From a virus, in the IMG/VR virus record IMGVR_UViG_3300048672_000152, positions 29,453 through 93,452 of that record: a stretch of 64,000 nucleotides of DNA. One strand, 5' to 3'. Position numbers and translations under genes: made by a program. The notes under the pieces are model-generated. The model was not told where the DNA came from, did not search any database, and saw only the letters and a program-made list of their open reading frames with translations. The number at the start of each line of letters is the position of its first letter. Positions within the stretch are counted from its first letter, which is position 1. Below are positions 1-33,421 of this stretch, in pieces.

Positions 1-504
1 TAGCAATCCAGTGACATTGAGCTTAAAGAAAGATGTCTCATTATTATAGAATCTACCTTTACCGTATGTCAATGCTGTCTCAATGTAATCACTACCTGTA
101 TCTATAAACTCACCAATCACTCTGTATTCGATTGGGATTAAAACTTCAGGAGTTTCCTCATAAACAGGGGTATATTTATCTAAATCAGCTAGAAGTTTAC
201 GGTGTTGAAACTCTGTTTCTAAGTCTGGGTAGTTATCACCATAATCAAAATCGGCGCGATACTCATTCATAAGTTCACTAGAGATTTCTGAATCACCATT
301 GATGTAATATTTTAGCACCCGTTGTGCCGATGTTACTGTGCTAATAACAGCATCCTTGGCTACTGATACTTGCGTCCCTTTTCCGTAAGATGTTTCGATA
401 CGTTTACCATCAATATCCCATTTACGACCTGATGGTAATTGGATAATCATAACATCACCAGATGTTACAGCTTCAAAATCATTTAACATTGTGATTAGTT
501 GCAT
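1..504 (-). CDS. hypothetical protein, 3' end runs off the window
   Basis: ATG at 504 with GGAGA SD; frame open to position 1 (MQLITMLNDF...). Confidence 0.7.
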   Translation of the reverse strand, partial: MQLITMLNDFEAVTSGDVMIIQLPSGRKWDIDGKRIETSYGKGTQVSVAKDAVISTVTSAQRVLKYYINGDSEISSELMNEYRADFDYGDNYPDLETEFQHRKLLADLDKYTPVYEETPEVLIPIEYRVIGEFIDTGSDYIETALTYGKGRFYNNETSFFKLNVTGLL

Positions 505-515
505 ATTATTTCTCC

Positions 516-755
516 TTAATATTTCTTAGCTTTACCTTCAATGTGTTCATTGGACATAAAATTACCATACGCCCAATAATCTTCATGTCCACATAACTTA
601 CATTTAGTAGTTGCTTCGCAGATGTGATAGTTAATTGTATCTTCCACTGTTATATCATTACTATCCTCAGAACCGCAAGCATTACAACTAGCCATTACAT
701 CGTATGGGTGGTGTTGTGGTATAAAGTTTTCACTGTTGAAATCTAGTTCAATCAT
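516..755 (-). CDS. small Zn-finger protein
   Basis: CxxC...CxxC; overlaps neighbour by 4 nt. Confidence 0.7.
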   Translation of the reverse strand: MIELDFNSENFIPQHHPYDVMASCNACGSEDSNDITVEDTINYHICEATTKCKLCGHEDYWAYGNFMSNEHIEGKAKKY

Positions 756-949
756 CCTAACATACTCTCACTAATAATCAAAGCGTTTTGCCACACAACG
801 GGAGCATCCATGTCTTCTTTAACAACATGAACTCTCATTCCTGTAACTGTGTACCCATCGTAAATCATTGTACCTTCTGGATGGTCATAAGGATCTGTAG
901 ATTTTAATAGAATGTCAAATGTTATTTTATAAGGTTTGTATGCTTCCAT
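752..949 (-). CDS. hypothetical protein
   Basis: SD, tight operon packing. Confidence 0.65.
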   Translation of the reverse strand: MEAYKPYKITFDILLKSTDPYDHPEGTMIYDGYTVTGMRVHVVKEDMDAPVVWQNALIISESMLG

Positions 950-950
950 A

Positions 951-1193
951 TTATTTCTCCCACTGCTTAATCAAAGCATCAGCAAATTCTACACTTGATT
1001 CGCTCCAACACTTCACCATAGCTTCCGAGGATTCGTATTGCAATACTGTATCCAAATACACAGGTAATAATGCTGCCCCAAATCGAGCAGATAATTCTTC
1101 TCGTTTAGAGAAGCCTGCATTATCACAATACAATTCTTTTTGACCGCTTAAATCTGCATATAGTGTTGGTTGTGCTGGTGTATTTGCGTTCAT
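951..1193 (-). CDS. hypothetical protein
   Basis: start moved to ATG 1193 behind GAGGAGAG SD. Confidence 0.65.
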   Translation of the reverse strand: MNANTPAQPTLYADLSGQKELYCDNAGFSKREELSARFGAALLPVYLDTVLQYESSEAMVKCWSESSVEFADALIKQWEK

Positions 1194-1257
1194 AATTTCT
1201 CTCCTCTGTTGAAACACTAACAACAGGATACCCGAAAGCGACCCTGTTGTCAATAGA

Positions 1258-1506
1258 TTATTTAAATACTGCTGCTTTCAATATACCTTCCAAGAGTAAC
1301 ACTCTATTAGTTAGTTCCTGATTAGCTTGACGTTCAGATTCTAGTACATCAGAGTGAACAGATAGAAGTTGTCTTGTTAAATCAGCATTTGCTCCATTCA
1401 ACACTTTAATTTGATTCTGTTTAGATTCTAACAAGCGTTGTAAAGCTTTAAACTGTTTGACTAACGTATCATAATCTTCGCTTGGCTCCACTGTAATGCT
1501 ATTCAC
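1258..1506 (-). CDS. coiled-coil hypothetical protein
   Basis: GTG at 1506 with GGAGG SD; heptad-like Leu pattern. Confidence 0.6.
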   Translation of the reverse strand: MNSITVEPSEDYDTLVKQFKALQRLLESKQNQIKVLNGANADLTRQLLSVHSDVLESERQANQELTNRVLLLEGILKAAVFK

Positions 1507-1999
1507 TCTTAGCCTCCAACCAATACCACTCATTATCTTCAATTTCTAACTTGAAGTGTTGTAAGATGAATTCCTTAGCACTCTCAATAGATGCAAACAT
1601 TACTTTAGGTTCCCATGTTTCAGCATCATACCCAAGTGTCAACTTAACTGGTGTATCCTTTGGTATATAGATTTCACTGTATTTGTGTTCACCTTGAAAT
1701 AGCGTGTATAATTGGTCTGTCAATGTGTCTTCATTTATTCTCCACGCTTCTTTATCATCTAGCAGGAATTCAATTTCTAATAAATCAAAATCATCGTTAG
1801 GATTGAATTGTTTATCTTGAATGAAGTCATGACTTTCGGTAAAGACTAATATTTTCTCACCATTCACTTTAACTCTATTTGTTTCAACTCCATCAACCAG
1901 ATTAACCCATTTTACATCAAACTCTGAATCGTAGTGAACAGTACCTACTTCCATATCTGGAAGACATAATAGCAACTTCGCTAGTTCATGTGATTTCAT
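1499..1999 (-). CDS. hypothetical protein
   Basis: 166 aa ORF, ATGA overlap with upstream gene. Confidence 0.7.
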   Translation of the reverse strand: MKSHELAKLLLCLPDMEVGTVHYDSEFDVKWVNLVDGVETNRVKVNGEKILVFTESHDFIQDKQFNPNDDFDLLEIEFLLDDKEAWRINEDTLTDQLYTLFQGEHKYSEIYIPKDTPVKLTLGYDAETWEPKVMFASIESAKEFILQHFKLEIEDNEWYWLEAKSE

Positions 2000-2550
2000 A
2001 ATCCAAGCTCCTCTAATTTATCTGACCAATCTGGATAAAACATATTGATTGTTGGTACATTAAACTTACGTGCAATATTCACTGCGGTAGCTGTACCACC
2101 TTGTACAACACCATTAACTTCTTTAGCATAGAATAACACAAAGTCTGATGGTAGGAATAAACCATCCCCTAGAATTTGACAAACATTCCTAGCGTGTAGC
2201 TTCTTAGCGCCAGCAGAACACCTACCCCAATGTGGGTGAACACTGGCTGCAATTTCCATACATGCGGTGTTCAGGTGTTGAGGGATTATGTTACTACCTG
2301 TACTTAGGTATTCTTCCATTTTAAAGTTTACCCAAGGAATGTAAATCTCTTGGTTGGTGATTACCGCATTAATATCACTGTAATAATACTCATGTCCCCA
2401 TTGGAAAGCCGAGTCGCTACCTTTAGCACCACCTGAACGTAGTGTATAACCTTTACCCGCTAGGTGATAAGCTTCAGTGGACATAGCTTCAAATACATTT
2501 TCAGGAACTTCCCTGCTCCCAATACCTGTGTAGATTTTATTCACAATCAA
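1996..2550 (-). CDS. SLOG/DprA-like nucleotide-binding protein
   Basis: YTGIGSR, LRSGGAKGSD, ARN and GGT motifs typical of phage SLOG proteins. Confidence 0.75.
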   Translation of the reverse strand: MIVNKIYTGIGSREVPENVFEAMSTEAYHLAGKGYTLRSGGAKGSDSAFQWGHEYYYSDINAVITNQEIYIPWVNFKMEEYLSTGSNIIPQHLNTACMEIAASVHPHWGRCSAGAKKLHARNVCQILGDGLFLPSDFVLFYAKEVNGVVQGGTATAVNIARKFNVPTINMFYPDWSDKLEELGL

Positions 2551-2776
2551 TCCTCACAATTTCTACATCATATCCAAACTCAGCACTGACAGAATTCTTA
2601 TAATACTCAGCCTCATGATAAGTGTCATAGATGTCAACAAACTCTAATTCAGTTGTATAAGCAACTAATTCGGCATACTGTATCTCGTCAATCTCGTATT
2701 CATCGAAATAGCAGTTAAGGTATTCGCCAGATTCTAAATCTCGAAGTACATATTTAATTGTCACATCACACCTCAC
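2537..2776 (-). CDS. acidic hypothetical protein
   Basis: operon packing. Confidence 0.6.
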   Translation of the reverse strand: MRCDVTIKYVLRDLESGEYLNCYFDEYEIDEIQYAELVAYTTELEFVDIYDTYHEAEYYKNSVSAEFGYDVEIVRIDCE

Positions 2777-2954
2777 GCTTCTTTTGGAAAGCTTTCCATT
2801 GTTTATCTGTAGAATAATGTCTGATCACACGAGCTAACGAATTCTGTAATTCAATATCACCTTCATCATGATTATCAAATTGTTCAATCAGGTCATCTAA
2901 GATAATATCATTCAGAGCATCAAACTCAATTTCGATTGTTACACGTTTAGTCAT
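2766..2954 (-). CDS. hypothetical protein
   Basis: operon packing, SD. Confidence 0.6.
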   Translation of the reverse strand: MTKRVTIEIEFDALNDIILDDLIEQFDNHDEGDIELQNSLARVIRHYSTDKQWKAFQKKREV

Positions 2955-3226
2955 ACATTCTCCTTACTTAATGTTTTAGCGATATTCTCTGCTGTACTAC
3001 TTAGTGATACAATAATGTCATCAAGTGTATTACCTTCCAACGCAACCCAAGAAAGCTTATCTGCAATCTGATTGAGATTAGCATAGAACAGAGAAGATTG
3101 TGTCATCTCTTTCTTAGCATCTTCCTTAAGAGTTGGTTTATGATGTGTCAAGTTATAACCAAAGTGGTCTGACTTGGTGATAGTGTAATATTCTTTGCTA
3201 TCTTTTACTTTGAATGTTAATTCCAT
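2951..3226 (-). CDS. hypothetical protein
   Basis: AGGAGAG SD. Confidence 0.65.
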   Translation of the reverse strand: MELTFKVKDSKEYYTITKSDHFGYNLTHHKPTLKEDAKKEMTQSSLFYANLNQIADKLSWVALEGNTLDDIIVSLSSTAENIAKTLSKENV

Positions 3227-3286
3227 ATTCTCTCCTTTGTAATTAAATTTGATTACATCATCATTTGTAAGCTATTTGACTTACAA

Positions 3287-3514
3287 TTAAAACTCTGTGT
3301 AATCGTAGTACTTAGATTGATAGCGTTCATGTGCAAGGACATGAACAGATTCTTCATCTAAATGTGGGTGTGTCATACGAACCATAGATTCAATCCACAA
3401 CATATCGCTCTCAAATTTAAATTCTTCATAAGCTGCACGTTCTTCTTCGGCATCATAGCTTTTCCATTGATCGTATGCAACACCAACATCGTTATTCCAA
3501 CTCTTGTATAACAT
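3287..3514 (-). CDS. hypothetical protein
   Basis: GAGGAG SD. Confidence 0.6.
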   Translation of the reverse strand: MLYKSWNNDVGVAYDQWKSYDAEEERAAYEEFKFESDMLWIESMVRMTHPHLDEESVHVLAHERYQSKYYDYTEF

Positions 3515-3528
3515 AATTATTAACTCCT

Positions 3529-4416
3529 CTAATTGCTCATATCTAATTCATTGCGAAATGCTTTCCAAGTAGGAAATCTAGGTACACCATAACTAGACAA
3601 TTCTTGATACTTGAATGTTACAAGCTTACCTAGACATTTATCTTGGTTATCCCAAATATCTTTGCGCTGTTCATCGGTGAATCCACTACCGATATTGAAT
3701 ACTACACCACCCCATTGCACTTGTAAAGAGCCAAGTGTGTTTGCGGGAAGTAAACCTTCTTTCTTACTTGAGCGTTTGCTATACCCTCGTTCATCCGTTT
3801 CTTTGATGTTTGTGTTGGTCATCTTTTCTTCAAAACCAATAACAGTTGCTTCGTCGTCTAAGAAACTTTTCAACTTCAACAAATAACCTTCTTTGAATGT
3901 AGACCGTCCTTGTTTATACTTGCCATTTAATGATCGTAAAATGCCACCTTCATAACCTTGTGATATGTATTTCCCTAGCAGATTTTCAACTTCTTCTGGA
4001 GTCTCAGCAATATCAGAAATCACGCGCTTAACATACAGTGGTCTATCAATCTCCAACACTTTAATCGTGTAAATATTAGCTCGTTCTTTGAAAGGTAAAT
4101 CACTATCCCAATAATCATAAACAGCCAAATAGAAATCTGGCTCTCCATCTTCTGACATAATTGCTGACTGAACAGAATTGAAGTCCCCATGTACCATTAA
4201 CTCCCCATCCAAACCATGAAGGTTTAATTCTTTAAACACTTCCTGTACAAATCGGTTAGGGATAAGCTTCATTTTGCGACTATAAGCCACCCCGTTAATA
4301 GCTAGACAACGTATTCCGTCGAGCTTTTGTTGAATGAAACACGGATACTTAATATCGGTGTATAAATTTGGTATTTCCGATGCCGCCAGCATACATTGCT
4401 TAATCATACTTCCCAT
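3529..4416 (-). CDS. lig: ATP-dependent DNA ligase
   Basis: KLDGIR adenylation motif, LDGEL, YEGGILR, LLKLK, IGSGF, PRFP. Confidence 0.95.
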   Translation of the reverse strand: MGSMIKQCMLAASEIPNLYTDIKYPCFIQQKLDGIRCLAINGVAYSRKMKLIPNRFVQEVFKELNLHGLDGELMVHGDFNSVQSAIMSEDGEPDFYLAVYDYWDSDLPFKERANIYTIKVLEIDRPLYVKRVISDIAETPEEVENLLGKYISQGYEGGILRSLNGKYKQGRSTFKEGYLLKLKSFLDDEATVIGFEEKMTNTNIKETDERGYSKRSSKKEGLLPANTLGSLQVQWGGVVFNIGSGFTDEQRKDIWDNQDKCLGKLVTFKYQELSSYGVPRFPTWKAFRNELDMSN

Positions 4417-5035
4417 TTAATACCTCCTCTTTAAATAAATTTATTAATTTATCCGCCACCCTTGCGTCTTCTTGTAAGGTAGCGAGTTGTATTGCCAATT
4501 CCTTCTTCCTTTTCTTCCACTGATTATGTGCCTCATCCTCAGAGAAGAAATACCCTAAATGTTCAACCGTATTCGTAAAAGGGTTACTACATCTTGCCCT
4601 AAATTTACCGTTTGGTTTGTAAATGTCAACTCCTAATTTGTATTGACCGCGCCTTTTCTCACAATCTAATAAGAAACAGTTAGTGAGTCTATCAACAAAT
4701 ACACAAGTTTCTGGACTGTAGAGCTTTCCATCACCCAACAAATCTTTATCTAACTCCCTACCTTCCCAGTTTTGTGTTTCCATCCATGTTTTAAAATTAG
4801 AAAAGGTAAGCCACTCAAAACAAACGTTTGTATTATCGTAAGTCGAACTTTTCATTAAGGTCTTCTTATTATAACAGCGTTTCAGCATATTGGACCAAGT
4901 TGTGAAATATGGACATCTGACTCGAAGTCCACCCGATCTCAAGTCTACTTGATAATCCGCATCATTGACCCCAATACCGTATATAAGTGTTTTTGACTTT
5001 TTTCTTCTTGGTGAGATGGTAAAGTTCATTTCCAT
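4400..5035 (-). CDS. free-standing HNH-type homing endonuclease with AP2-like C-terminus
   Basis: IYGIGVND, WSNMLKRCY, LDKDLL..GKLYSPETC, HLGYF..EDEAH. Confidence 0.85.
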   Translation of the reverse strand: MEMNFTISPRRKKSKTLIYGIGVNDADYQVDLRSGGLRVRCPYFTTWSNMLKRCYNKKTLMKSSTYDNTNVCFEWLTFSNFKTWMETQNWEGRELDKDLLGDGKLYSPETCVFVDRLTNCFLLDCEKRRGQYKLGVDIYKPNGKFRARCSNPFTNTVEHLGYFFSEDEAHNQWKKRKKELAIQLATLQEDARVADKLINLFKEEVLNGKYD

Positions 5036-5619
5036 CCTCTAGTTTGTTTAATTTCATCTAAGCTAATTGGTGTGTAATTTACTTGTTCGCATGATACACA
5101 GTAGTATCTATCATCAGTTACATCACCAAGATACATACCCAAGTATTTTTCTTCTCTTGTGACTCGTTTACTATGTAAGTGACCATGAATATTCATACCA
5201 CGATATAATTCATAATCAGGTACAGGAATATGGCTAATCCACAATCCCCATCTGGACTCAACACCCATGATAGTTACATTCTTAAATTGTAGTGCATATT
5301 TAACAACTGATAATTTATCATGATTACCTAATACATAATACACTCGTTGAAACTTACGTGCATATTCCTTCAGTCGCCAGAATTCACTTTCCTTAAAGAA
5401 TATATCACCTAACAACCATAAACAATCGCATTTGTTTCCTGTGTTCATGATGTTTCGATGAATTGTTTCATTGTGTTCTTCGACAGAAGAAAACTCTTTA
5501 CGAAATTTTAAATGTATATTGCTGTGTCCAAAATGGGTATCAGCAATGAAATAATGCTTTGGTGGTTCCGGTGCCGCTTTCCGACTAAAACCACTTTCTA
5601 CTAATGTTATATCGCTCAT
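5026..5619 (-). CDS. calcineurin-like metallophosphoesterase
   Basis: DTHFGH, LGD, GNHD, HGHLH motifs. Confidence 0.9.
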   Translation of the reverse strand: MSDITLVESGFSRKAAPEPPKHYFIADTHFGHSNIHLKFRKEFSSVEEHNETIHRNIMNTGNKCDCLWLLGDIFFKESEFWRLKEYARKFQRVYYVLGNHDKLSVVKYALQFKNVTIMGVESRWGLWISHIPVPDYELYRGMNIHGHLHSKRVTREEKYLGMYLGDVTDDRYYCVSCEQVNYTPISLDEIKQTRGWK

Positions 5620-5628
5620 AGCATTCTC

Positions 5629-5976
5629 CTAATCCCAAAACCCTAATAAATGTTTATTCAGCATAGTTGTGAGCAAACTCAAATTTGCTTTTCTGCGTTT
5701 GACCAGATACTTGTGACTCTCCCACATAACGCGAATATCTTTGTTGTTTCTAGTGATAAACACTTTATTTGTCTGATGATTATCCTCACGTACTCGCTTA
5801 CACAACTCAGCACAAATCTTCATCTTCTTAGCCACTTTGTCAGCATTAAGGTGCATACCTTTCTTCAATGTAACTTTAGCGGCATTATCTAACCAATCTT
5901 CCATAGCCATCAACAAGAAACTGTAGTCATACCATTTGTAAGCCTTTAAGAATTGACGTTTGTGTTTGTTTTTCAT
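5629..5976 (-). CDS. hypothetical protein
   Basis: ATG 5976 after GGAGG; ends ..FWD. Confidence 0.65.
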   Translation of the reverse strand: MKNKHKRQFLKAYKWYDYSFLLMAMEDWLDNAAKVTLKKGMHLNADKVAKKMKICAELCKRVREDNHQTNKVFITRNNKDIRVMWESHKYLVKRRKANLSLLTTMLNKHLLGFWD

Positions 5977-5977
5977 A

Positions 5978-6178
5978 CTACACCTCCCGAACCACATACA
6001 TATTAGACCCATACTCGGCATCAACAGCCTCTTGTGCTAATACTCGTTTGCTTGTTTTATAGAAAATGAATGTCCCATCCCAAATACGAATGCAATATTT
6101 GCTTGGGTAGACAAAAGTATCTTGTGCATATTCTTCATAACTAACAACTACTACTTCAATAGCTTTCTTCTTAGACAT
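5978..6178 (-). CDS. hypothetical protein
   Basis: ATG 6178 after AAGGAGA, downstream of promoter. Confidence 0.65.
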   Translation of the reverse strand: MSKKKAIEVVVVSYEEYAQDTFVYPSKYCIRIWDGTFIFYKTSKRVLAQEAVDAEYGSNMYVVREV

Positions 6179-6208
6179 TATTTTCTCCTTCATGTTTCGA
6201 TGAGATTC

Positions 6209-6236
6209 ATTATACACGAATCAAATATCAATGCAA
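6209..6236 (-). promoter_or_regulatory. sigma70-type promoter
   Basis: TTGCAT-16-TATAAT. Confidence 0.65.
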
Positions 6237-6258
6237 CTATAATTTTCATTATTACAAA

Positions 6259-6285
6259 GAAAAAAGCCCGCTAAGAAGCGGGCTT
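6259..6285 (-). terminator. intrinsic terminator
   Basis: AAGCCCGC-loop-GCGGGCTT followed by U-run on - strand. Confidence 0.8.
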
Positions 6286-6459
6286 ATGTTTATCTAATTC
6301 TTCACGATATAAAGCAATAGCTTTGAGTAGACTATCCACTTGTTTCTCAAGTACACTGTTGTACTCTTGTAACTCATTGTTCCGGCGCTCTAGCTGGCGG
6401 ATTGTTTCTTTGTCGTCTGGAACAGACATATATTCTCTCATTTCTGCATAGTGCGTCAT
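6271..6459 (-). CDS. small coiled-coil protein
   Basis: ATGA overlap with upstream gene. Confidence 0.6.
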   Translation of the reverse strand: MTHYAEMREYMSVPDDKETIRQLERRNNELQEYNSVLEKQVDSLLKAIALYREELDKHKPAS

Positions 6460-6737
6460 TTTGTTTCTCCTTTGTTTGCAAATTTCTCATTAAGGATATC
6501 AGCTAACCAAACACCTGTTACAGCACCAACTGCCGCTCCAATGGAAGTGATTAGAATAGTCCATGTTGCCCCTTGCGTCAACACTGTTCCATAAACAGTC
6601 AGTTCTAGTAAGCAGATAAAATAACTCACAATAGGAATAATTCTCATATTCTTATTTGCGATACTTCTACCTTGCAACGTTTTTAGCCCCACTGCTGTGA
6701 ACATACCTAGCGTTGTTAATATTGTTTGTGCTATCAT
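6456..6737 (-). CDS. small membrane protein (about 3 TM)
   Basis: three hydrophobic segments. Confidence 0.7.
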   Translation of the reverse strand: MIAQTILTTLGMFTAVGLKTLQGRSIANKNMRIIPIVSYFICLLELTVYGTVLTQGATWTILITSIGAAVGAVTGVWLADILNEKFANKGETK

Positions 6738-19409: not shown

Positions 19410-21204
19410 GATAACTAACAAAGCTCCAGACCAAGAACCGATAAGAATCGGCCCTTGTTCAGAGATGCAAGAATTAGTGTTTAAAAGAGCCACTGAGGTA
19501 GATTTCCTACTCATTGGCGGCTCTCGTGGTAAATAGACCGCTGCCACGTAACCTTGCTAAGTCGGTGAAACCCTAACGTAAAGTCGAGGGCAATACCGAG
19601 CCGAATGATTTGATTCATGGGTGTAGAGACTAGAGTAGTATCAAGCGATACGAAAACGTAAGGGTGTCGAGAGACATAAGATATAGTCCGACAACACTGG
19701 AAACAGTGGAAGTAGCTAGCGCCTACAAAACTGAGACTTGGGCGGCAAGTCTGAAGTGATGACACAACTACCTTTAATTTGGCGAGATGATCCAAATTTC
19801 ACGGGTATGTTCACACGTACAATGCTAAAACAATTACTAGGTTCTGGTGGTCTTTGGGAAATAGCGGCTAAGTATTACCCTTTACTTGGCGCTAAATCAG
19901 TTAAGATGCCACAACCAATGTATACCTTCCCTAGCGGTGCTAGACTTCGTTATTCTCAAATCTCTGGTATGAGCGATGCGGAAAGTTTGAGGGGCCTCCA
20001 GCTTTCTTACTTGGCCATAGATGAGCTGACACAGTTAGACCAAAAGAGTGTGCAATTCTTATTAACCTGTCTTCGTTCAGAAGCAAACATGAACTCTATC
20101 TGTGTAGCGTCATGTAACCCTCATAAAGATTCATGGGTGTTTGACCTAGTATCTTGGTACTTAGATGATAAAGGTTTTGTTGATAAAGAGAAGAATGGTA
20201 AGACTCGTTATTACGTAGTCAATGAAGGTCAATTTATCTTTGCAGATGAAGAAGAATGGTTTAAGGAAAACTTACCAGACTGTGTAACAAACAGCCAAAC
20301 AGGCGAGTATATTCCACCTAAGAAATTCTGCTTTGTGCAACTAACCATATTTAATAATCCAATATTATTAAAGAAGAACCCAAGGTACTTGTCCGAATTA
20401 CAGAACTTACCTCCACATGAACGTGATGCCCAATTATACGGCAACTGGTTTGCCACTGCCGAAAAACCAGACTACTTCAACAGAGCTATGGTTCAAGGTA
20501 AGCATGGTGAGCGTATAGCACCTTTCGTACCTATCGGGTCTACGAGGGTACGTGCTTGGGACAAGGCAGCCACACAGTTCATACCTAAGATAAATAACAC
20601 TGATGCTGACTTTAGTGCTTGCATAGCAATGGCTAAAGACAGACTTGGGAATTATTATATCTATGCCGACTTCTGCAAAGATAACTATGACGAATATGAA
20701 AAAGTGTATGGAAAGTTCCGTAAGAACTCTGCTCAACGTGACCAGATAATGATGGAGCAAGCCAAACACGATGGTAAGGAAACTTATCTAGTAATCGCCA
20801 AGGATGCTGCTGCTGATGGGAAGACTGTGTATGAGCAATTATCCCGCATGTTCTTATCTGCTGGTTTTAAAGTTAAACCCAGCAAAAGTAGTGCTTCACA
20901 GAGTAAGTGGACAAGGTTTGAACCTTTCCTTTGTGCTTGCCAAGCTGGATTAGTCCATATAGTCGAAAGCTCCTTCCCTGACAAACGTACTCTTGAACTG
21001 TTCTATGCAGAACTCGAAGCGTTTAATCCAGATCCGACAACTGGTAAATGGCGTTCAGGGCGTTATGTGAAAGATGATTGGCTCGATAGTTGTAGTGATG
21101 CGTTTTTATTTCTATCTATGGAAAAAATATACGCAGTCCCCAAACTAGGCTCATTTTCACCCCCACCTATAAGCGTTAAAGCTATCGCTTTAGCTGATAT
21201 GTAA
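19390..21204 (+). CDS. terL: terminase large subunit, spliced: join(19390..19530,19741..21204), 534 aa
   Basis: AGGAGA SD at 19381; splicing restores Walker A IGGSRG|GGKS; Walker B AIDELT, CNP, nuclease RAWDKA...DDWLDS. Confidence 0.93.
19531..19740 (+). mobile_element. group I intron (210 nt, ORF-less) in terL
   Basis: 5' exon ends in U paired to G in P1 (CGTGGT/GCCACG), P10 GCTGCC/GGCGGC, P/Q AAGTCGGTGAAA..AATACCGAG, R GTAGAGACTA, S AAGATATAGTCC, terminal G. Confidence 0.95.
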
Positions 21205-29432: not shown

Positions 29433-29861
29433 ATGACAACAAATTTAGAACGTAAAAAAGAAATCTTCAATGTAGGCGGTAAAGCCTATATCTCTGTTTC
29501 TTGGTCGCCTATGAAAGCTGCTAAGAACCTCCCTAAGATTGGTAAAGCATTCGCCGTACCTATCTCTTTCCTTATCGCTGGTGGTGAAAATATCCAATCA
29601 GCTATCCCTACAGCTATGATGATGTTGTTCGAGCAGTTAGAAGAACAAGACATTACAGAGTTGTTCTCTTTAATTCTAGCAGATGTTTGGTCTAAGAGTA
29701 CAGATAAAGCGTTAAATATTGATACTGATCTTGAGAACATTGATGAGTTACTTCAGCTAACAGCTAACGTATTGAAGCAACATTATGGGGTACTGATTAA
29801 CGGTACGGGTTTTACATCCCTGTTCCAAACGATGGTTCCTCTACATCAAATGGCGGTATAA
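29433..29861 (+). CDS. tail assembly chaperone (gpG-like)
   Basis: between tube and TMP; slippery G GGT TTT at 29807-29813. Confidence 0.85.
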   Translation: MTTNLERKKEIFNVGGKAYISVSWSPMKAAKNLPKIGKAFAVPISFLIAGGENIQSAIPTAMMMLFEQLEEQDITELFSLILADVWSKSTDKALNIDTDLENIDELLQLTANVLKQHYGVLINGTGFTSLFQTMVPLHQMAV

Positions 29862-30076: not shown

Positions 30077-33000
30077 ATGGCAGATAATGTAGTAGGCTCA
30101 GTTGTTGGTCGTGTTAGGTTTAGTATTGATAAAAGGTCGTGGGATAATCTCGATTTATTTCAAAAGAAACTTACCTCAATTAAACGACAAATGACTAACA
30201 TGGACAAGAGTATTAAAGTTAATGCTGTTGTCCAACAAATAAATAAAGTAGCTAATACGGTCGTGAACGCTGAAAAGAAAGTAGCTAAAGCGAAAGAAGA
30301 AGCGGCTAAGAAGAATCATAAACTAATGACTTTCGGTAGTGTTGGTGGTGATCCTAAAGGTTATACGAAGTTCTGGCAAGAGGAACTAAAGACTCGTGAC
30401 CAGCTAACTAAAGCCAGAGAAAAGCAAGATGCTATTTACGCTAAACGTCAACAAGCTGCTCTAGCTAACAATAACAAACGTGCTGGTATGTCTGATAGAC
30501 TAGCTTGGTTATTCCCTGCATCATCTGTAAGTAATCCAGCCAATCGCGGTTTGTTAGCTCAAATGCTTCGTGATGAAGCCACTGCGAGTGTTAAGCTCCA
30601 GAGAGAACAAGACAAAGCATACGAAGCTCGTCGTAAAGATGTGATGGGTAGGCGCAATGCTTCTTTAAAATCTCGTGCTGCTCGTGACAGAGCTAAAGAA
30701 AAACAAACAGCCAAAGCCAATAGAAATAGAACAGCATTTGAAGCTGGCGTTGAAAACTTCATGCTCATTAAAGAATCTCAGCTTAATCAATATGCTGATA
30801 GGGTGAGAATGAGTCAGCAACAACGTGCTGAGATGATGGGTCGTCTAGGTAAAGCAAAGGAAGATGCTTTAAAAGGTATTGACCCCACTCAGGCTAGAGC
30901 TATTGAATCTTTTAGAGCGCAAGTAAATAAAACTAAGAATGAAATGGTTAACACTGACCGTATTACTAGGTCTAATGCTGTTTCATTTAGGTCACTACGT
31001 AATGAAATTGTGCAACTAACTGCTGCTTATACGGCGTTTAGTGTTGTGCAGAATGTTGCTCAGACTGGTATGGATCTCGAAGGAATTCGTGCTGCTGCTA
31101 AAGTATTTACAGGTAGCGACGCAGGGACTACTGCTCACATGGAATACCTTGTAGAAATGTCTGATAGACTTGGCGTTAACTTCATGACAGCAGCTAAAGA
31201 GTTTAATAAATTCTCTATTGCTGTAGGTAGTAAAGCAGATCAAGGTACACAAAGACATATCTTTGAAGGTTTGTCAGAGTATGCAACAGTATTACAAGTA
31301 GACCAACAACAATATGAACGAGCTATTCGTTCAGTAGTTCAAATGTTCTCAAAGGAACAAGTATACGCTTAAATTCAGGTGCTTCATATAGTAATATATG
31401 TCGAAGAATCTCTCTAATTCGGTGGAACTCTTACCATGTAATGATGGAGACAATGCCGAGCGAAGCTCAATGTATAATATTGAGAACGTGTGACGGTCAG
31501 AACGATAGTTCGTACCCTATAAGCTATTGATAGGGGAAACGGGAGATACCGTATTATTAAATTAACGGTAAAGAGATGACCTAATCTGTATAGAAATATA
31601 CAGCAGCATGTAAAGATGCGAATAACTTAGTAGCGTAAGTTATTGAATTATATGGAAGAATTACGTGGGCAGTGGACTGACTAGCTGCCATAACATAGTA
31701 ATATGTTATAAGAAAACTTATTGAATTGCTGGAAACTCCTAAAAATCATACACTACAAAGTAATCGGTGACGGTAAGCTTGACAGTTTGAAAAGTTATGA
31801 TATGATCTTTCTTTTAATAAGAGGAAGTGAAATGGACAATCAGCAGGTAAGTTCCTGTGAAGAAGTTTGGAAATTATATGAAGATGAACCTCGTTATGAA
31901 GTATCTACTTTTGGTAGAGTTCGGCACGTTAAGGATTTATCTATCAAATATAGTAAGCCAGATAAAATAGGGTATGTATGCATCCAATGTAAAACAAAAG
32001 GTAAAATCAAAAACCTTAAAGTACACAGGATGGTGGCACAGACGTTCTTAGAAAACCCAAACTCTTTGAGAGAAGTAAATCACAAAGACGGGGTTAAAAC
32101 TAACAATAACGTAGATAATCTTGAGTGGTGTACGCGCAGGGATAACATACTGCATGGTCACGATATAGGTCTTTACGATTTAAAAGGTTCTAAGAATGGT
32201 AGGTCTGTATTAACAGAAGATTTAGTACATAAACTTTGTGCTTGGTACGAGAGTTGTCCAAACAACACTCCAAAACTCGCAGTTAAAATGTTTAGTATTA
32301 GTATACAGCAAGCATCTAAAATCAGGTGCGGTATTGCATGGAAACATATATCTTCTCAGTACAACATACTTCCCTTAGTAAACAGGAAAAACTCCAGAGA
32401 CTAGGCGTAAGCCGTACACCTAAGCAGGTGGAAGTGGTAAGCTCCTCTAACGAGGATGAAGATATAGTCCGACCTCATACGAAAGTATGAGCAGCTTGAA
32501 TAAAGCGGGGATGATGTAGCGAATCATCTTGAACATTTTGTAGCCGAAGCCCTCCCCGGATCTGTATCAGCAATGATGCGAGCAGCAGGGTATGATAACG
32601 AAAAAGATTTCTTTAAAGCTGTAGAAGCTGGTAAGATTATGGCATCAGAAGTTATGCCAAAGTTTGCCGATGAATTGAAGAAAGTAGCAAGAACAAATGG
32701 TGCGTTAGAAGCAACTACTAAAAAGACTCGTGCAGAAATGCAACGGTTCTTTAACCAACTAACATACGCCAAAGATAATATATTCCAAGGTGGAATGAAT
32801 GAAGGTTTATCTTATATGTTCGGCTCTTTTGCTGACTTACTTAAAGAGATGGAACCAGTTGCGAAAGCTTTAGGTGCTATGTTCAGAGGTGCGGTTGTAA
32901 CACTTACAGGTGCTATTAAAGTAGCACTTGTCCCGTTCAGAGGTTTAGTAGCGCTGTTTGATTCATTAGGTGATAACTTAGAACGATTAGGTATTCTTGA

Positions 33001-33421
33001 TGGTAGTGGTGGTATGTGGTCTGTAGTAGGTGGCGCTGGTGTATTGGTATTAATGGCAACACGATTCAATTGGCTGAGTAAAGCAGTGTGGTCTGTCAAT
33101 AGCGCATTGTTGACAATGGCTGCGAGGTTCGCACCTATCATTGCCGCTTATGCTGTGCTAGAAGATTTAGCTCTATACGCAACGTATGGTGATAAAGCTG
33201 ATACTGCAGTAGGTAGGGCAATCAAGTATACGCAAACAAACCCATTAGCTGACACCACAAGCAAATTGTCAAGCTTCACCCCAACAGGGTGGATAGCCAA
33301 TCAAGCTAAGACCTTAGTTGAAGTAACAATGAAAGGTGATGCTGATAATTGGTTGAGTGCAAAAATAGACCAATTTTCACATATTACATCAGCCGTAACT
33401 CAAACGGAGACAAGTCAATAA
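30077..33421 (+). CDS. tape measure protein, spliced: join(30077..31369,31655..31673,32541..33421), 730 aa
   Basis: splicing restores the conserved QMFSKEQVYA|EELRGQ(L)AEALPG tape-measure motif; frame continues into ORF 32573..33421. Confidence 0.92.
31370..31654 (+). mobile_element. group I intron 1 in TMP (285 nt, ORF-less)
   Basis: exon ends in U with U.G in P1; P/Q AATTCGGTGGAA..AATGCCGAG; P7 GGTCA/TGACC; terminal G. Confidence 0.9.
31779..31806 (+). promoter_or_regulatory. intron-internal sigma70 promoter for the HNH gene
   Basis: TTGACA-16-TATGAT with extended TG; GAGGA SD 25 nt downstream region. Confidence 0.65.
31832..32404 (+). CDS. intron-encoded NUMOD4-HNH homing endonuclease (190 aa)
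   Basis: EVWK....YEVSTFGRVR, VHRMVAQTF, VNHKDGVKTNNNVDNLEW; ATG 31832 after GAGGA. Confidence 0.9.
   Translation: MDNQQVSSCEEVWKLYEDEPRYEVSTFGRVRHVKDLSIKYSKPDKIGYVCIQCKTKGKIKNLKVHRMVAQTFLENPNSLREVNHKDGVKTNNNVDNLEWCTRRDNILHGHDIGLYDLKGSKNGRSVLTEDLVHKLCAWYESCPNNTPKLAVKMFSISIQQASKIRCGIAWKHISSQYNILPLVNRKNSRD

Follow-up and report, generated by a model that had tools for sequence, protein, structure and literature searches.

Two group I introns 19 nt apart interrupt the tape-measure gene of an uncultured phage

How does a tail gene that is broken by stop codons and a stray endonuclease gene encode its product, and does the interruption itself serve as a control? The locus lies in a 64,000-nt stretch of DNA (the window; positions 29,453 to 93,452 of IMG/VR record IMGVR_UViG_3300048672_000152) from an uncultured aquatic myovirus-like phage of about 93 kb, and it was analyzed at the DNA level. 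Gene finders give this essential tail gene, whose product is the tape-measure protein (TMP), as two unrelated open reading frames (ORFs), one of 431 codons and one of 282 aa beginning at ATG 32573, with the endonuclease ORF between them; recognition of two introns restores a 730-aa TMP. A sequence-only reading had proposed these introns and the 19-nt exon between them, and had further suggested that two consecutive self-splicing events impose an order or act as a condition-sensitive checkpoint on tail assembly. The parts of the locus, in window coordinates, are as follows.

30077..31369, + strand: TMP exon 1, 431 codons (ORF list; positions 1-423 of 800 in profile PHROG 5255)
31370..31654, + strand: intron 1, a 285-nt group I intron with no ORF (RF00028 match, helices, and a DNA contig of run X2)
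31655..31673, + strand: small exon, encoding EELRGQ and base 1 of the split Leu codon (19 nt and the same peptide in contigs L004 and L005)
31674..32540, + strand: intron 2, a group I intron of 867 nt with an endonuclease gene (RF00028 pieces and helices)
31807..31827, + strand: 9-bp hairpin over the endonuclease Shine-Dalgarno sequence (GAGGA, 31821-31825; local fold)
31832..32404, + strand: predicted homing endonuclease gene, 190 aa, NUMOD4 and HNH_3 (Pfam, PHROG)
32541..33421, + strand: TMP exon 3, with the stop codon (positions 431-576 of PHROG 5255; colinear with homologues)

Joining 30077-31369, 31655-31673 and 32541-33421 gave a single open frame of 730 aa, which reads QVYA/EELRGQ/LAEALPG across the two junctions (marked by slashes); exon 3 opens with the final two bases of the split Leu codon. 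Three PHROGs (5255, 25927 and 28779) match both large exons. PHROG 5255 is annotated as "tail length tape measure protein"; both large exons fit this same profile, and the small exon falls in its 7-position gap (424-430). The gene is downstream of genes for the sheath, the tube and the tail assembly chaperone, with neighbors matching PHROG 205, 280 and 3840. Hence, profile match and gene position both identify it as a TMP gene. A Pfam search recognized neither large exon as any TMP family, and a megablast search of GenBank phages with the locus as query returned no match. The uninterrupted TMPs of the Rheinheimera Barba phages and of Vibrio phage 1.121.O are colinear with the joined protein and gap-free at both junctions; the region of the small exon reads EEVKGQF in the Barba phages and EELKGQL in the 1.121.O homologue. 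Exact excision thus restores the host gene, as expected of group I introns, with the 730-aa frame colinear with both intron-less alleles and homologues. All of the exon and intron coordinates first proposed, and the 730-aa product, hold, and the junction peptide is the same in intron-less relatives.

The proposal had named a U.G pair at the 5′ splice site, a P4/P7 core and a terminal G for each intron. We found all of these, together with helices P1 to P10. For intron 1, a covariance-model search matched Rfam RF00028 at 31360-31603 with 57.1 bits, above the gathering threshold of 50 bits. P1 pairs 31366-31370 with 31377-31381 and is short (4+1 bp), with the U.G at 31369; P10 pairs 31655-31657 with 31374-31376 and is weak (3 bp). 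P3 has 7 bp, P7 pairs 31495-31499 with 31577-31581, and the terminal G is at 31654. P2, P4, P5, P6, P7.1/P7.2, P8, P9, P9.1 and P9.2 are also present. All core helices of intron 1 are fully paired except the long form of P6, of which a shorter version pairs at 6 of 7 positions.

Intron 2 gave no single RF00028 match at the gathering threshold, because its ORF splits the core. In E-value mode the model matched two pieces that flank the 573-nt ORF, namely, P4-P6 at 31727-31892 (21.4 bits) and P7-P9 at 32180-32491 (39.0 bits). The intron that Aeromonas phage PhAER-3 carries at this site has no ORF and reaches 88.9 bits. P1 of intron 2 pairs 31668-31673 with 31684-31689 (6 bp, with the U.G at 31673), and P10, again a weak 3 bp, pairs 32541-32543 with 31681-31683. 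P3 pairs 31717-31722 with 32436-32441, P7 pairs 32399-32403 with 32465-32469, and the terminal G is at 32540. The same further helices were found as in intron 1 (P2, P4, P5, P6, P7.1/P7.2, P8, P9, P9.1 and P9.2), and the core is fully paired except for P5 (3 of 4 pairs). Each intron carries P7.1/P7.2 and P9.1/P9.2, and both look like members of subgroup IA. We concluded that two group I introns split the TMP gene; this is well supported and far beyond chance. Two other sets of boundaries were considered and rejected. A single large intron at 31370-32540 would join 31369 to 32541 and give an immediate TAG, and a one-base shift of the intron 2 boundaries would break the rule of U at position -1 and terminal G and would change a conserved Leu to Val.

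The product of the ORF in intron 2 has both domains of an HNH-3/NUMOD4 intron endonuclease above their Pfam cut-offs (HNH_3, 29.8 bits against 24.8; NUMOD4, 25.7 bits against 23.4), matches PHROG 59 at 149 bits and is 46.8% identical to an intron ORF in the TMP locus of Vibrio phage ICP1 isolate M4. Its start codon is in the P5′/P4′ strands and its stop codon, TAG, is in the 5′ strand of P7, such that the gene effectively fills the P6 loop. The hairpin at 31807-31827 may control translation of the endonuclease, as judged from the predicted fold over its ribosome-binding site. This arrangement recalls the translational control of T4 intron endonucleases.

Could one or both introns have ceased to splice, leaving either a broken TMP in a defective phage or two polypeptides that start at 30077 and 32573? 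The weak P1 of intron 1, the sub-threshold score of intron 2 and the 282-aa ORF opened by ATG 32573 would each fit such a locus. However, all core helices are intact, the exon frames, like the small exon, are conserved in protein sequence, and the metagenome depth of the contig is even, as in a live population. Moreover, we saw no Shine-Dalgarno-like sequence before 32573, and a split would destroy the most conserved motif of the TMP. We therefore regard loss of splicing as highly improbable. By analogy, the homologous TMP gene of ICP1, which is spliced into a message of four exons with removal of three introns according to RNA-seq, RT-PCR and Sanger sequencing (PMC10448857), suggests that the TMP message in the window would be spliced too.

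We compared the locus with related IMG/VR contigs and with contigs of four public sequencing runs. Two IMG/VR contigs (L004 and L005) have an uninterrupted TMP gene with about 76-79% nucleotide identity over exon 1. In both, exactly 19 nt separate the bases matching 31369 and 32541, and these encode a peptide identical to that of the window. The contigs of the four runs are all DNA (one run is labeled RNA-Seq, is probably DNA and contributed scraps only, and no RNA run appeared among the public runs listed for the locus); they therefore represent alleles rather than spliced RNA. The window's own form occurs in run X1, a freshwater metagenome that is its probable source, with a longest record of 93,051 nt. 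Two other forms were found in run X2. One contig runs from 31369 to 32541 with 19 other letters between and is an intron-less allele. In another, 31369 is joined exactly to 31655 and the sequence continues into intron 2; this allele lacks intron 1 only. These contigs fix the boundaries of intron 1. The one-intron contig has 3 differences in 197 nt of the intron 2 flank versus 40 in 470 nt of exon 1, and in it 661 other letters replace the 537-nt endonuclease region (window 31851-32389) between nearly identical intron 2 flanks. This contig shows that the ORF inside intron 2 can be exchanged within the same intron. Together, the one-intron and intron-less contigs of run X2 show that the two introns move separately and recently.

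The same short motif is interrupted in the TMP genes of other phages. Counting those of the window, there are nine related introns at five sites (lettered a to e by their order in the motif), within about 45 nt of the motif, in ICP1, PhAER-3, two IMG/VR phage contigs (L009 and L015) and the window. The loci outside the window, in the coordinates of their own records, are as follows.

Aeromonas phage PhAER-3 (PQ495740, L002), 268-3532: TMP gene with introns at 1135-2140 (HNH endonuclease) and 2178-2498 (ORF-less)
Vibrio phage ICP1 isolate 1992_Ind_M4 (MW794141, L006), 2364-6680: TMP gene with three introns
Contig L009, 2310-3186: single, endonuclease-bearing TMP intron at the site of the window's intron 1 (site b)
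Contig L015, 2251-3278: single, endonuclease-bearing TMP intron at the first site of PhAER-3 (site a)

The second intron of PhAER-3 sits exactly at the site of the window's intron 2 (site d). In contrast, its first intron, which carries the endonuclease, lies at site a, 18 nt upstream of the site of the window's intron 1. PhAER-3 has an internal exon of 37 nt, and joining its exons yields a frame of 645 aa. The annotation of that TMP gene gives separate hypothetical proteins, and the same correction applies to it. For ICP1 M4 we read internal exons of 8 nt (4311-4318) and 16 nt (4691-4706), sizes that are absent from the published text, and a frame of 677 aa. ICP1 shares with the window the gene, the motif and the intron family (its introns and those of the window are 40-59% identical when roughly aligned), and its first intron is at site b. 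It differs in having three introns rather than two and in leaving the window's second site unused, and the two TMPs are distantly related.

All nine introns end in a terminal G, have a preceding U that pairs with a G of a guide sequence located 9-27 nt into the intron, and are built on a common architecture. P1 with its U.G pair is present in both introns of the window, and the pairing is maintained by compensatory change. At site d, GGCAGU/GCUGCC in the window corresponds to GUCAGU/GCUGAC in PhAER-3; at site b, a C-G pair and a G-C pair are exchanged between the window and ICP1. Judged by these shared features, the nine introns are one intron family. The natural series of alleles (no intron, intron 2 only, both introns) adds to the evidence that this short TMP motif is a recurrent landing pad, one that serves a single intron family across distant phages.

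The small exon had been described as acting both as the 3′ exon of intron 1 and as the P1 strand of intron 2. It does take part in the pairing of both introns, through separate, non-overlapping ends: the 3 nt at its 5′ end enter P10 of intron 1, and the 6 nt at its 3′ end enter P1 of intron 2. Since the two introns use different ends, their pairing needs no fixed order, and the suggestion of a forced splicing order was not borne out. Relative to intron-less relatives, the small exon carries synonymous changes exactly where the guide sequence of intron 2 must pair, a local adaptation of the exon. Skipping of the 19-nt exon looks disfavored on pairing grounds, because exon 1 would be left unpaired with the guide sequence of intron 2 and exon 3 unpaired with P10 of intron 1.

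Translation of the possible messages reproduced the earlier claim that unspliced and exon-skipped RNA yield an identical 431-aa truncation. In the unspliced frame, a TAA at 31370-31372 directly follows exon 1; computed messages with intron 2 alone removed, or with the 19-nt exon skipped, likewise end after 431 aa, and removal of intron 1 alone gives 440 aa. That every splicing failure truncates the TMP, at 431 or 440 aa, and that the stops are located at the splice sites could be taken as signs of a selected checkpoint, in which two splicing events gate full-length TMP and hence tail assembly by conditions or by a forced order; ideas of introns as sensors are found in the literature (PMC3073962, PMC11878797). 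However, close relatives get by without any intron or with just intron 2, and the number and positions of introns at the hot spot vary in other phages. Such stops are, moreover, common to phage group I introns in general (PMC2504315), and the P10 of the first intron and the P1 of the second occupy different ends of the small exon and impose no order. The checkpoint proposed by the sequence-only reading is unsupported, weakened by the intron-less and intron-2-only relatives, and we consider it unlikely.

The presence/absence polymorphism points instead to selfish mobile elements at a conserved homing hot spot. Very probably, two mobile group I introns invaded the TMP gene 19 nt apart, self-splice independently and represent a pile-up of selfish elements at that hot spot; self-splicing, endonuclease activity and homing are here predicted from sequence. 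Under this pile-up model, related mobile introns would have entered the gene twice, both times in codons of the conserved motif, and the HNH-3/NUMOD4 endonuclease of intron 2 presumably cuts or nicks intron-less alleles, leading to homing. Each ribozyme would be expected to excise itself on its own from the late mRNA, intron 1 by means of its 4+1-bp P1 and a P10 of 3 bp formed with the start of the small exon, and intron 2 by means of a 6-bp P1 on the final six bases. The ligated message would then encode the 730-aa TMP, and the in-frame stops, which lie at each 5′ splice site or directly behind it, would keep ribosomes off the ribozyme cores. The endonuclease of contig L009 is 60% identical to that of the window, though it rides an intron at the site of the window's intron 1. 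Because this endonuclease rides a site-b intron, and because the ORF of intron 2 differs in one allele, we tentatively raise the idea that the ORF-less intron 1 might spread by collaborative homing, hitch-hiking on the endonuclease that intron 2 carries at a distance of 19 nt, with the endonuclease lineage tied to the TMP motif and not to a single intron; we think this possible rather than probable.

The premise that phage introns reside mostly in DNA metabolism genes was incomplete, as the TMP gene is a published and frequent target (PMC2504315, PMC10448857). Barth, Dunham and Seed (2023) described it as frequently interrupted and found that the ORF content of the ICP1 TMP introns differs among isolates (PMC10448857). 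In prophages of the Bacillus cereus group, Tourasse and Kolsto (2008) described group I introns TMP-IVS1, TMP-IVS2 and TMP-IVS3 at three sites of the TMP gene (PMC2504315). As in the window and its relatives, there are several group I introns per gene, related introns adapted to their sites through P1 and the internal guide sequence, different introns at one site, endonuclease genes that are present or lost, and stop codons at the beginning of the intron or close to it. The Bacillus systems differ in that the prophages are Gram-positive, the sites are distant from one another, the TMP exceeds 1200 aa and a micro-exon is not described (PMC2504315). A search of the literature for micro-exons in connection with phage group I introns turned up no relevant paper.

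A very short exon between tandem introns is nevertheless on record in another tail gene. According to two papers that cite Landthaler and Shub (1999) (PMC10136302, PMC11878797), orf142 of Staphylococcus phage Twort contains three group I introns, the second and third of which are separated by a 23-nt exon, and shows exon skipping. The likeness to the window lies in tandem IA-type introns in a tail gene with a very short exon between them; the difference is that orf142 is a tail tube gene whose second and third introns closely resemble each other and whose short exon is skipped. In the window, by contrast, the two guide sequences and the 5′ exon ends differ from each other, so that skipping would be disfavored. 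Elsewhere, spliced introns are known in capsid and tail genes of Cluster J mycobacteriophages (PMC3706429), and papers on Basilisk-like phages, Moonbeam and KASIA report introns in genes other than that for the TMP. Multi-intron TMP genes with tiny exons are thus already published and experimentally confirmed elsewhere, and the window is one more example. For this reason, the locus opens no new question and reveals no new regulatory device.

A third group I intron was seen in the large terminase gene of the window, at 19471-19710 on the + strand (RF00028, 48.7 bits, slightly short of the 50-bit threshold; E = 7.7e-11 when 2 kb were searched). In ICP1, too, terL is interrupted by an intron, next to which lies a free-standing endonuclease gene (PMC10448857), and introns in both terL and the TMP gene are thus common to the window phage and ICP1.
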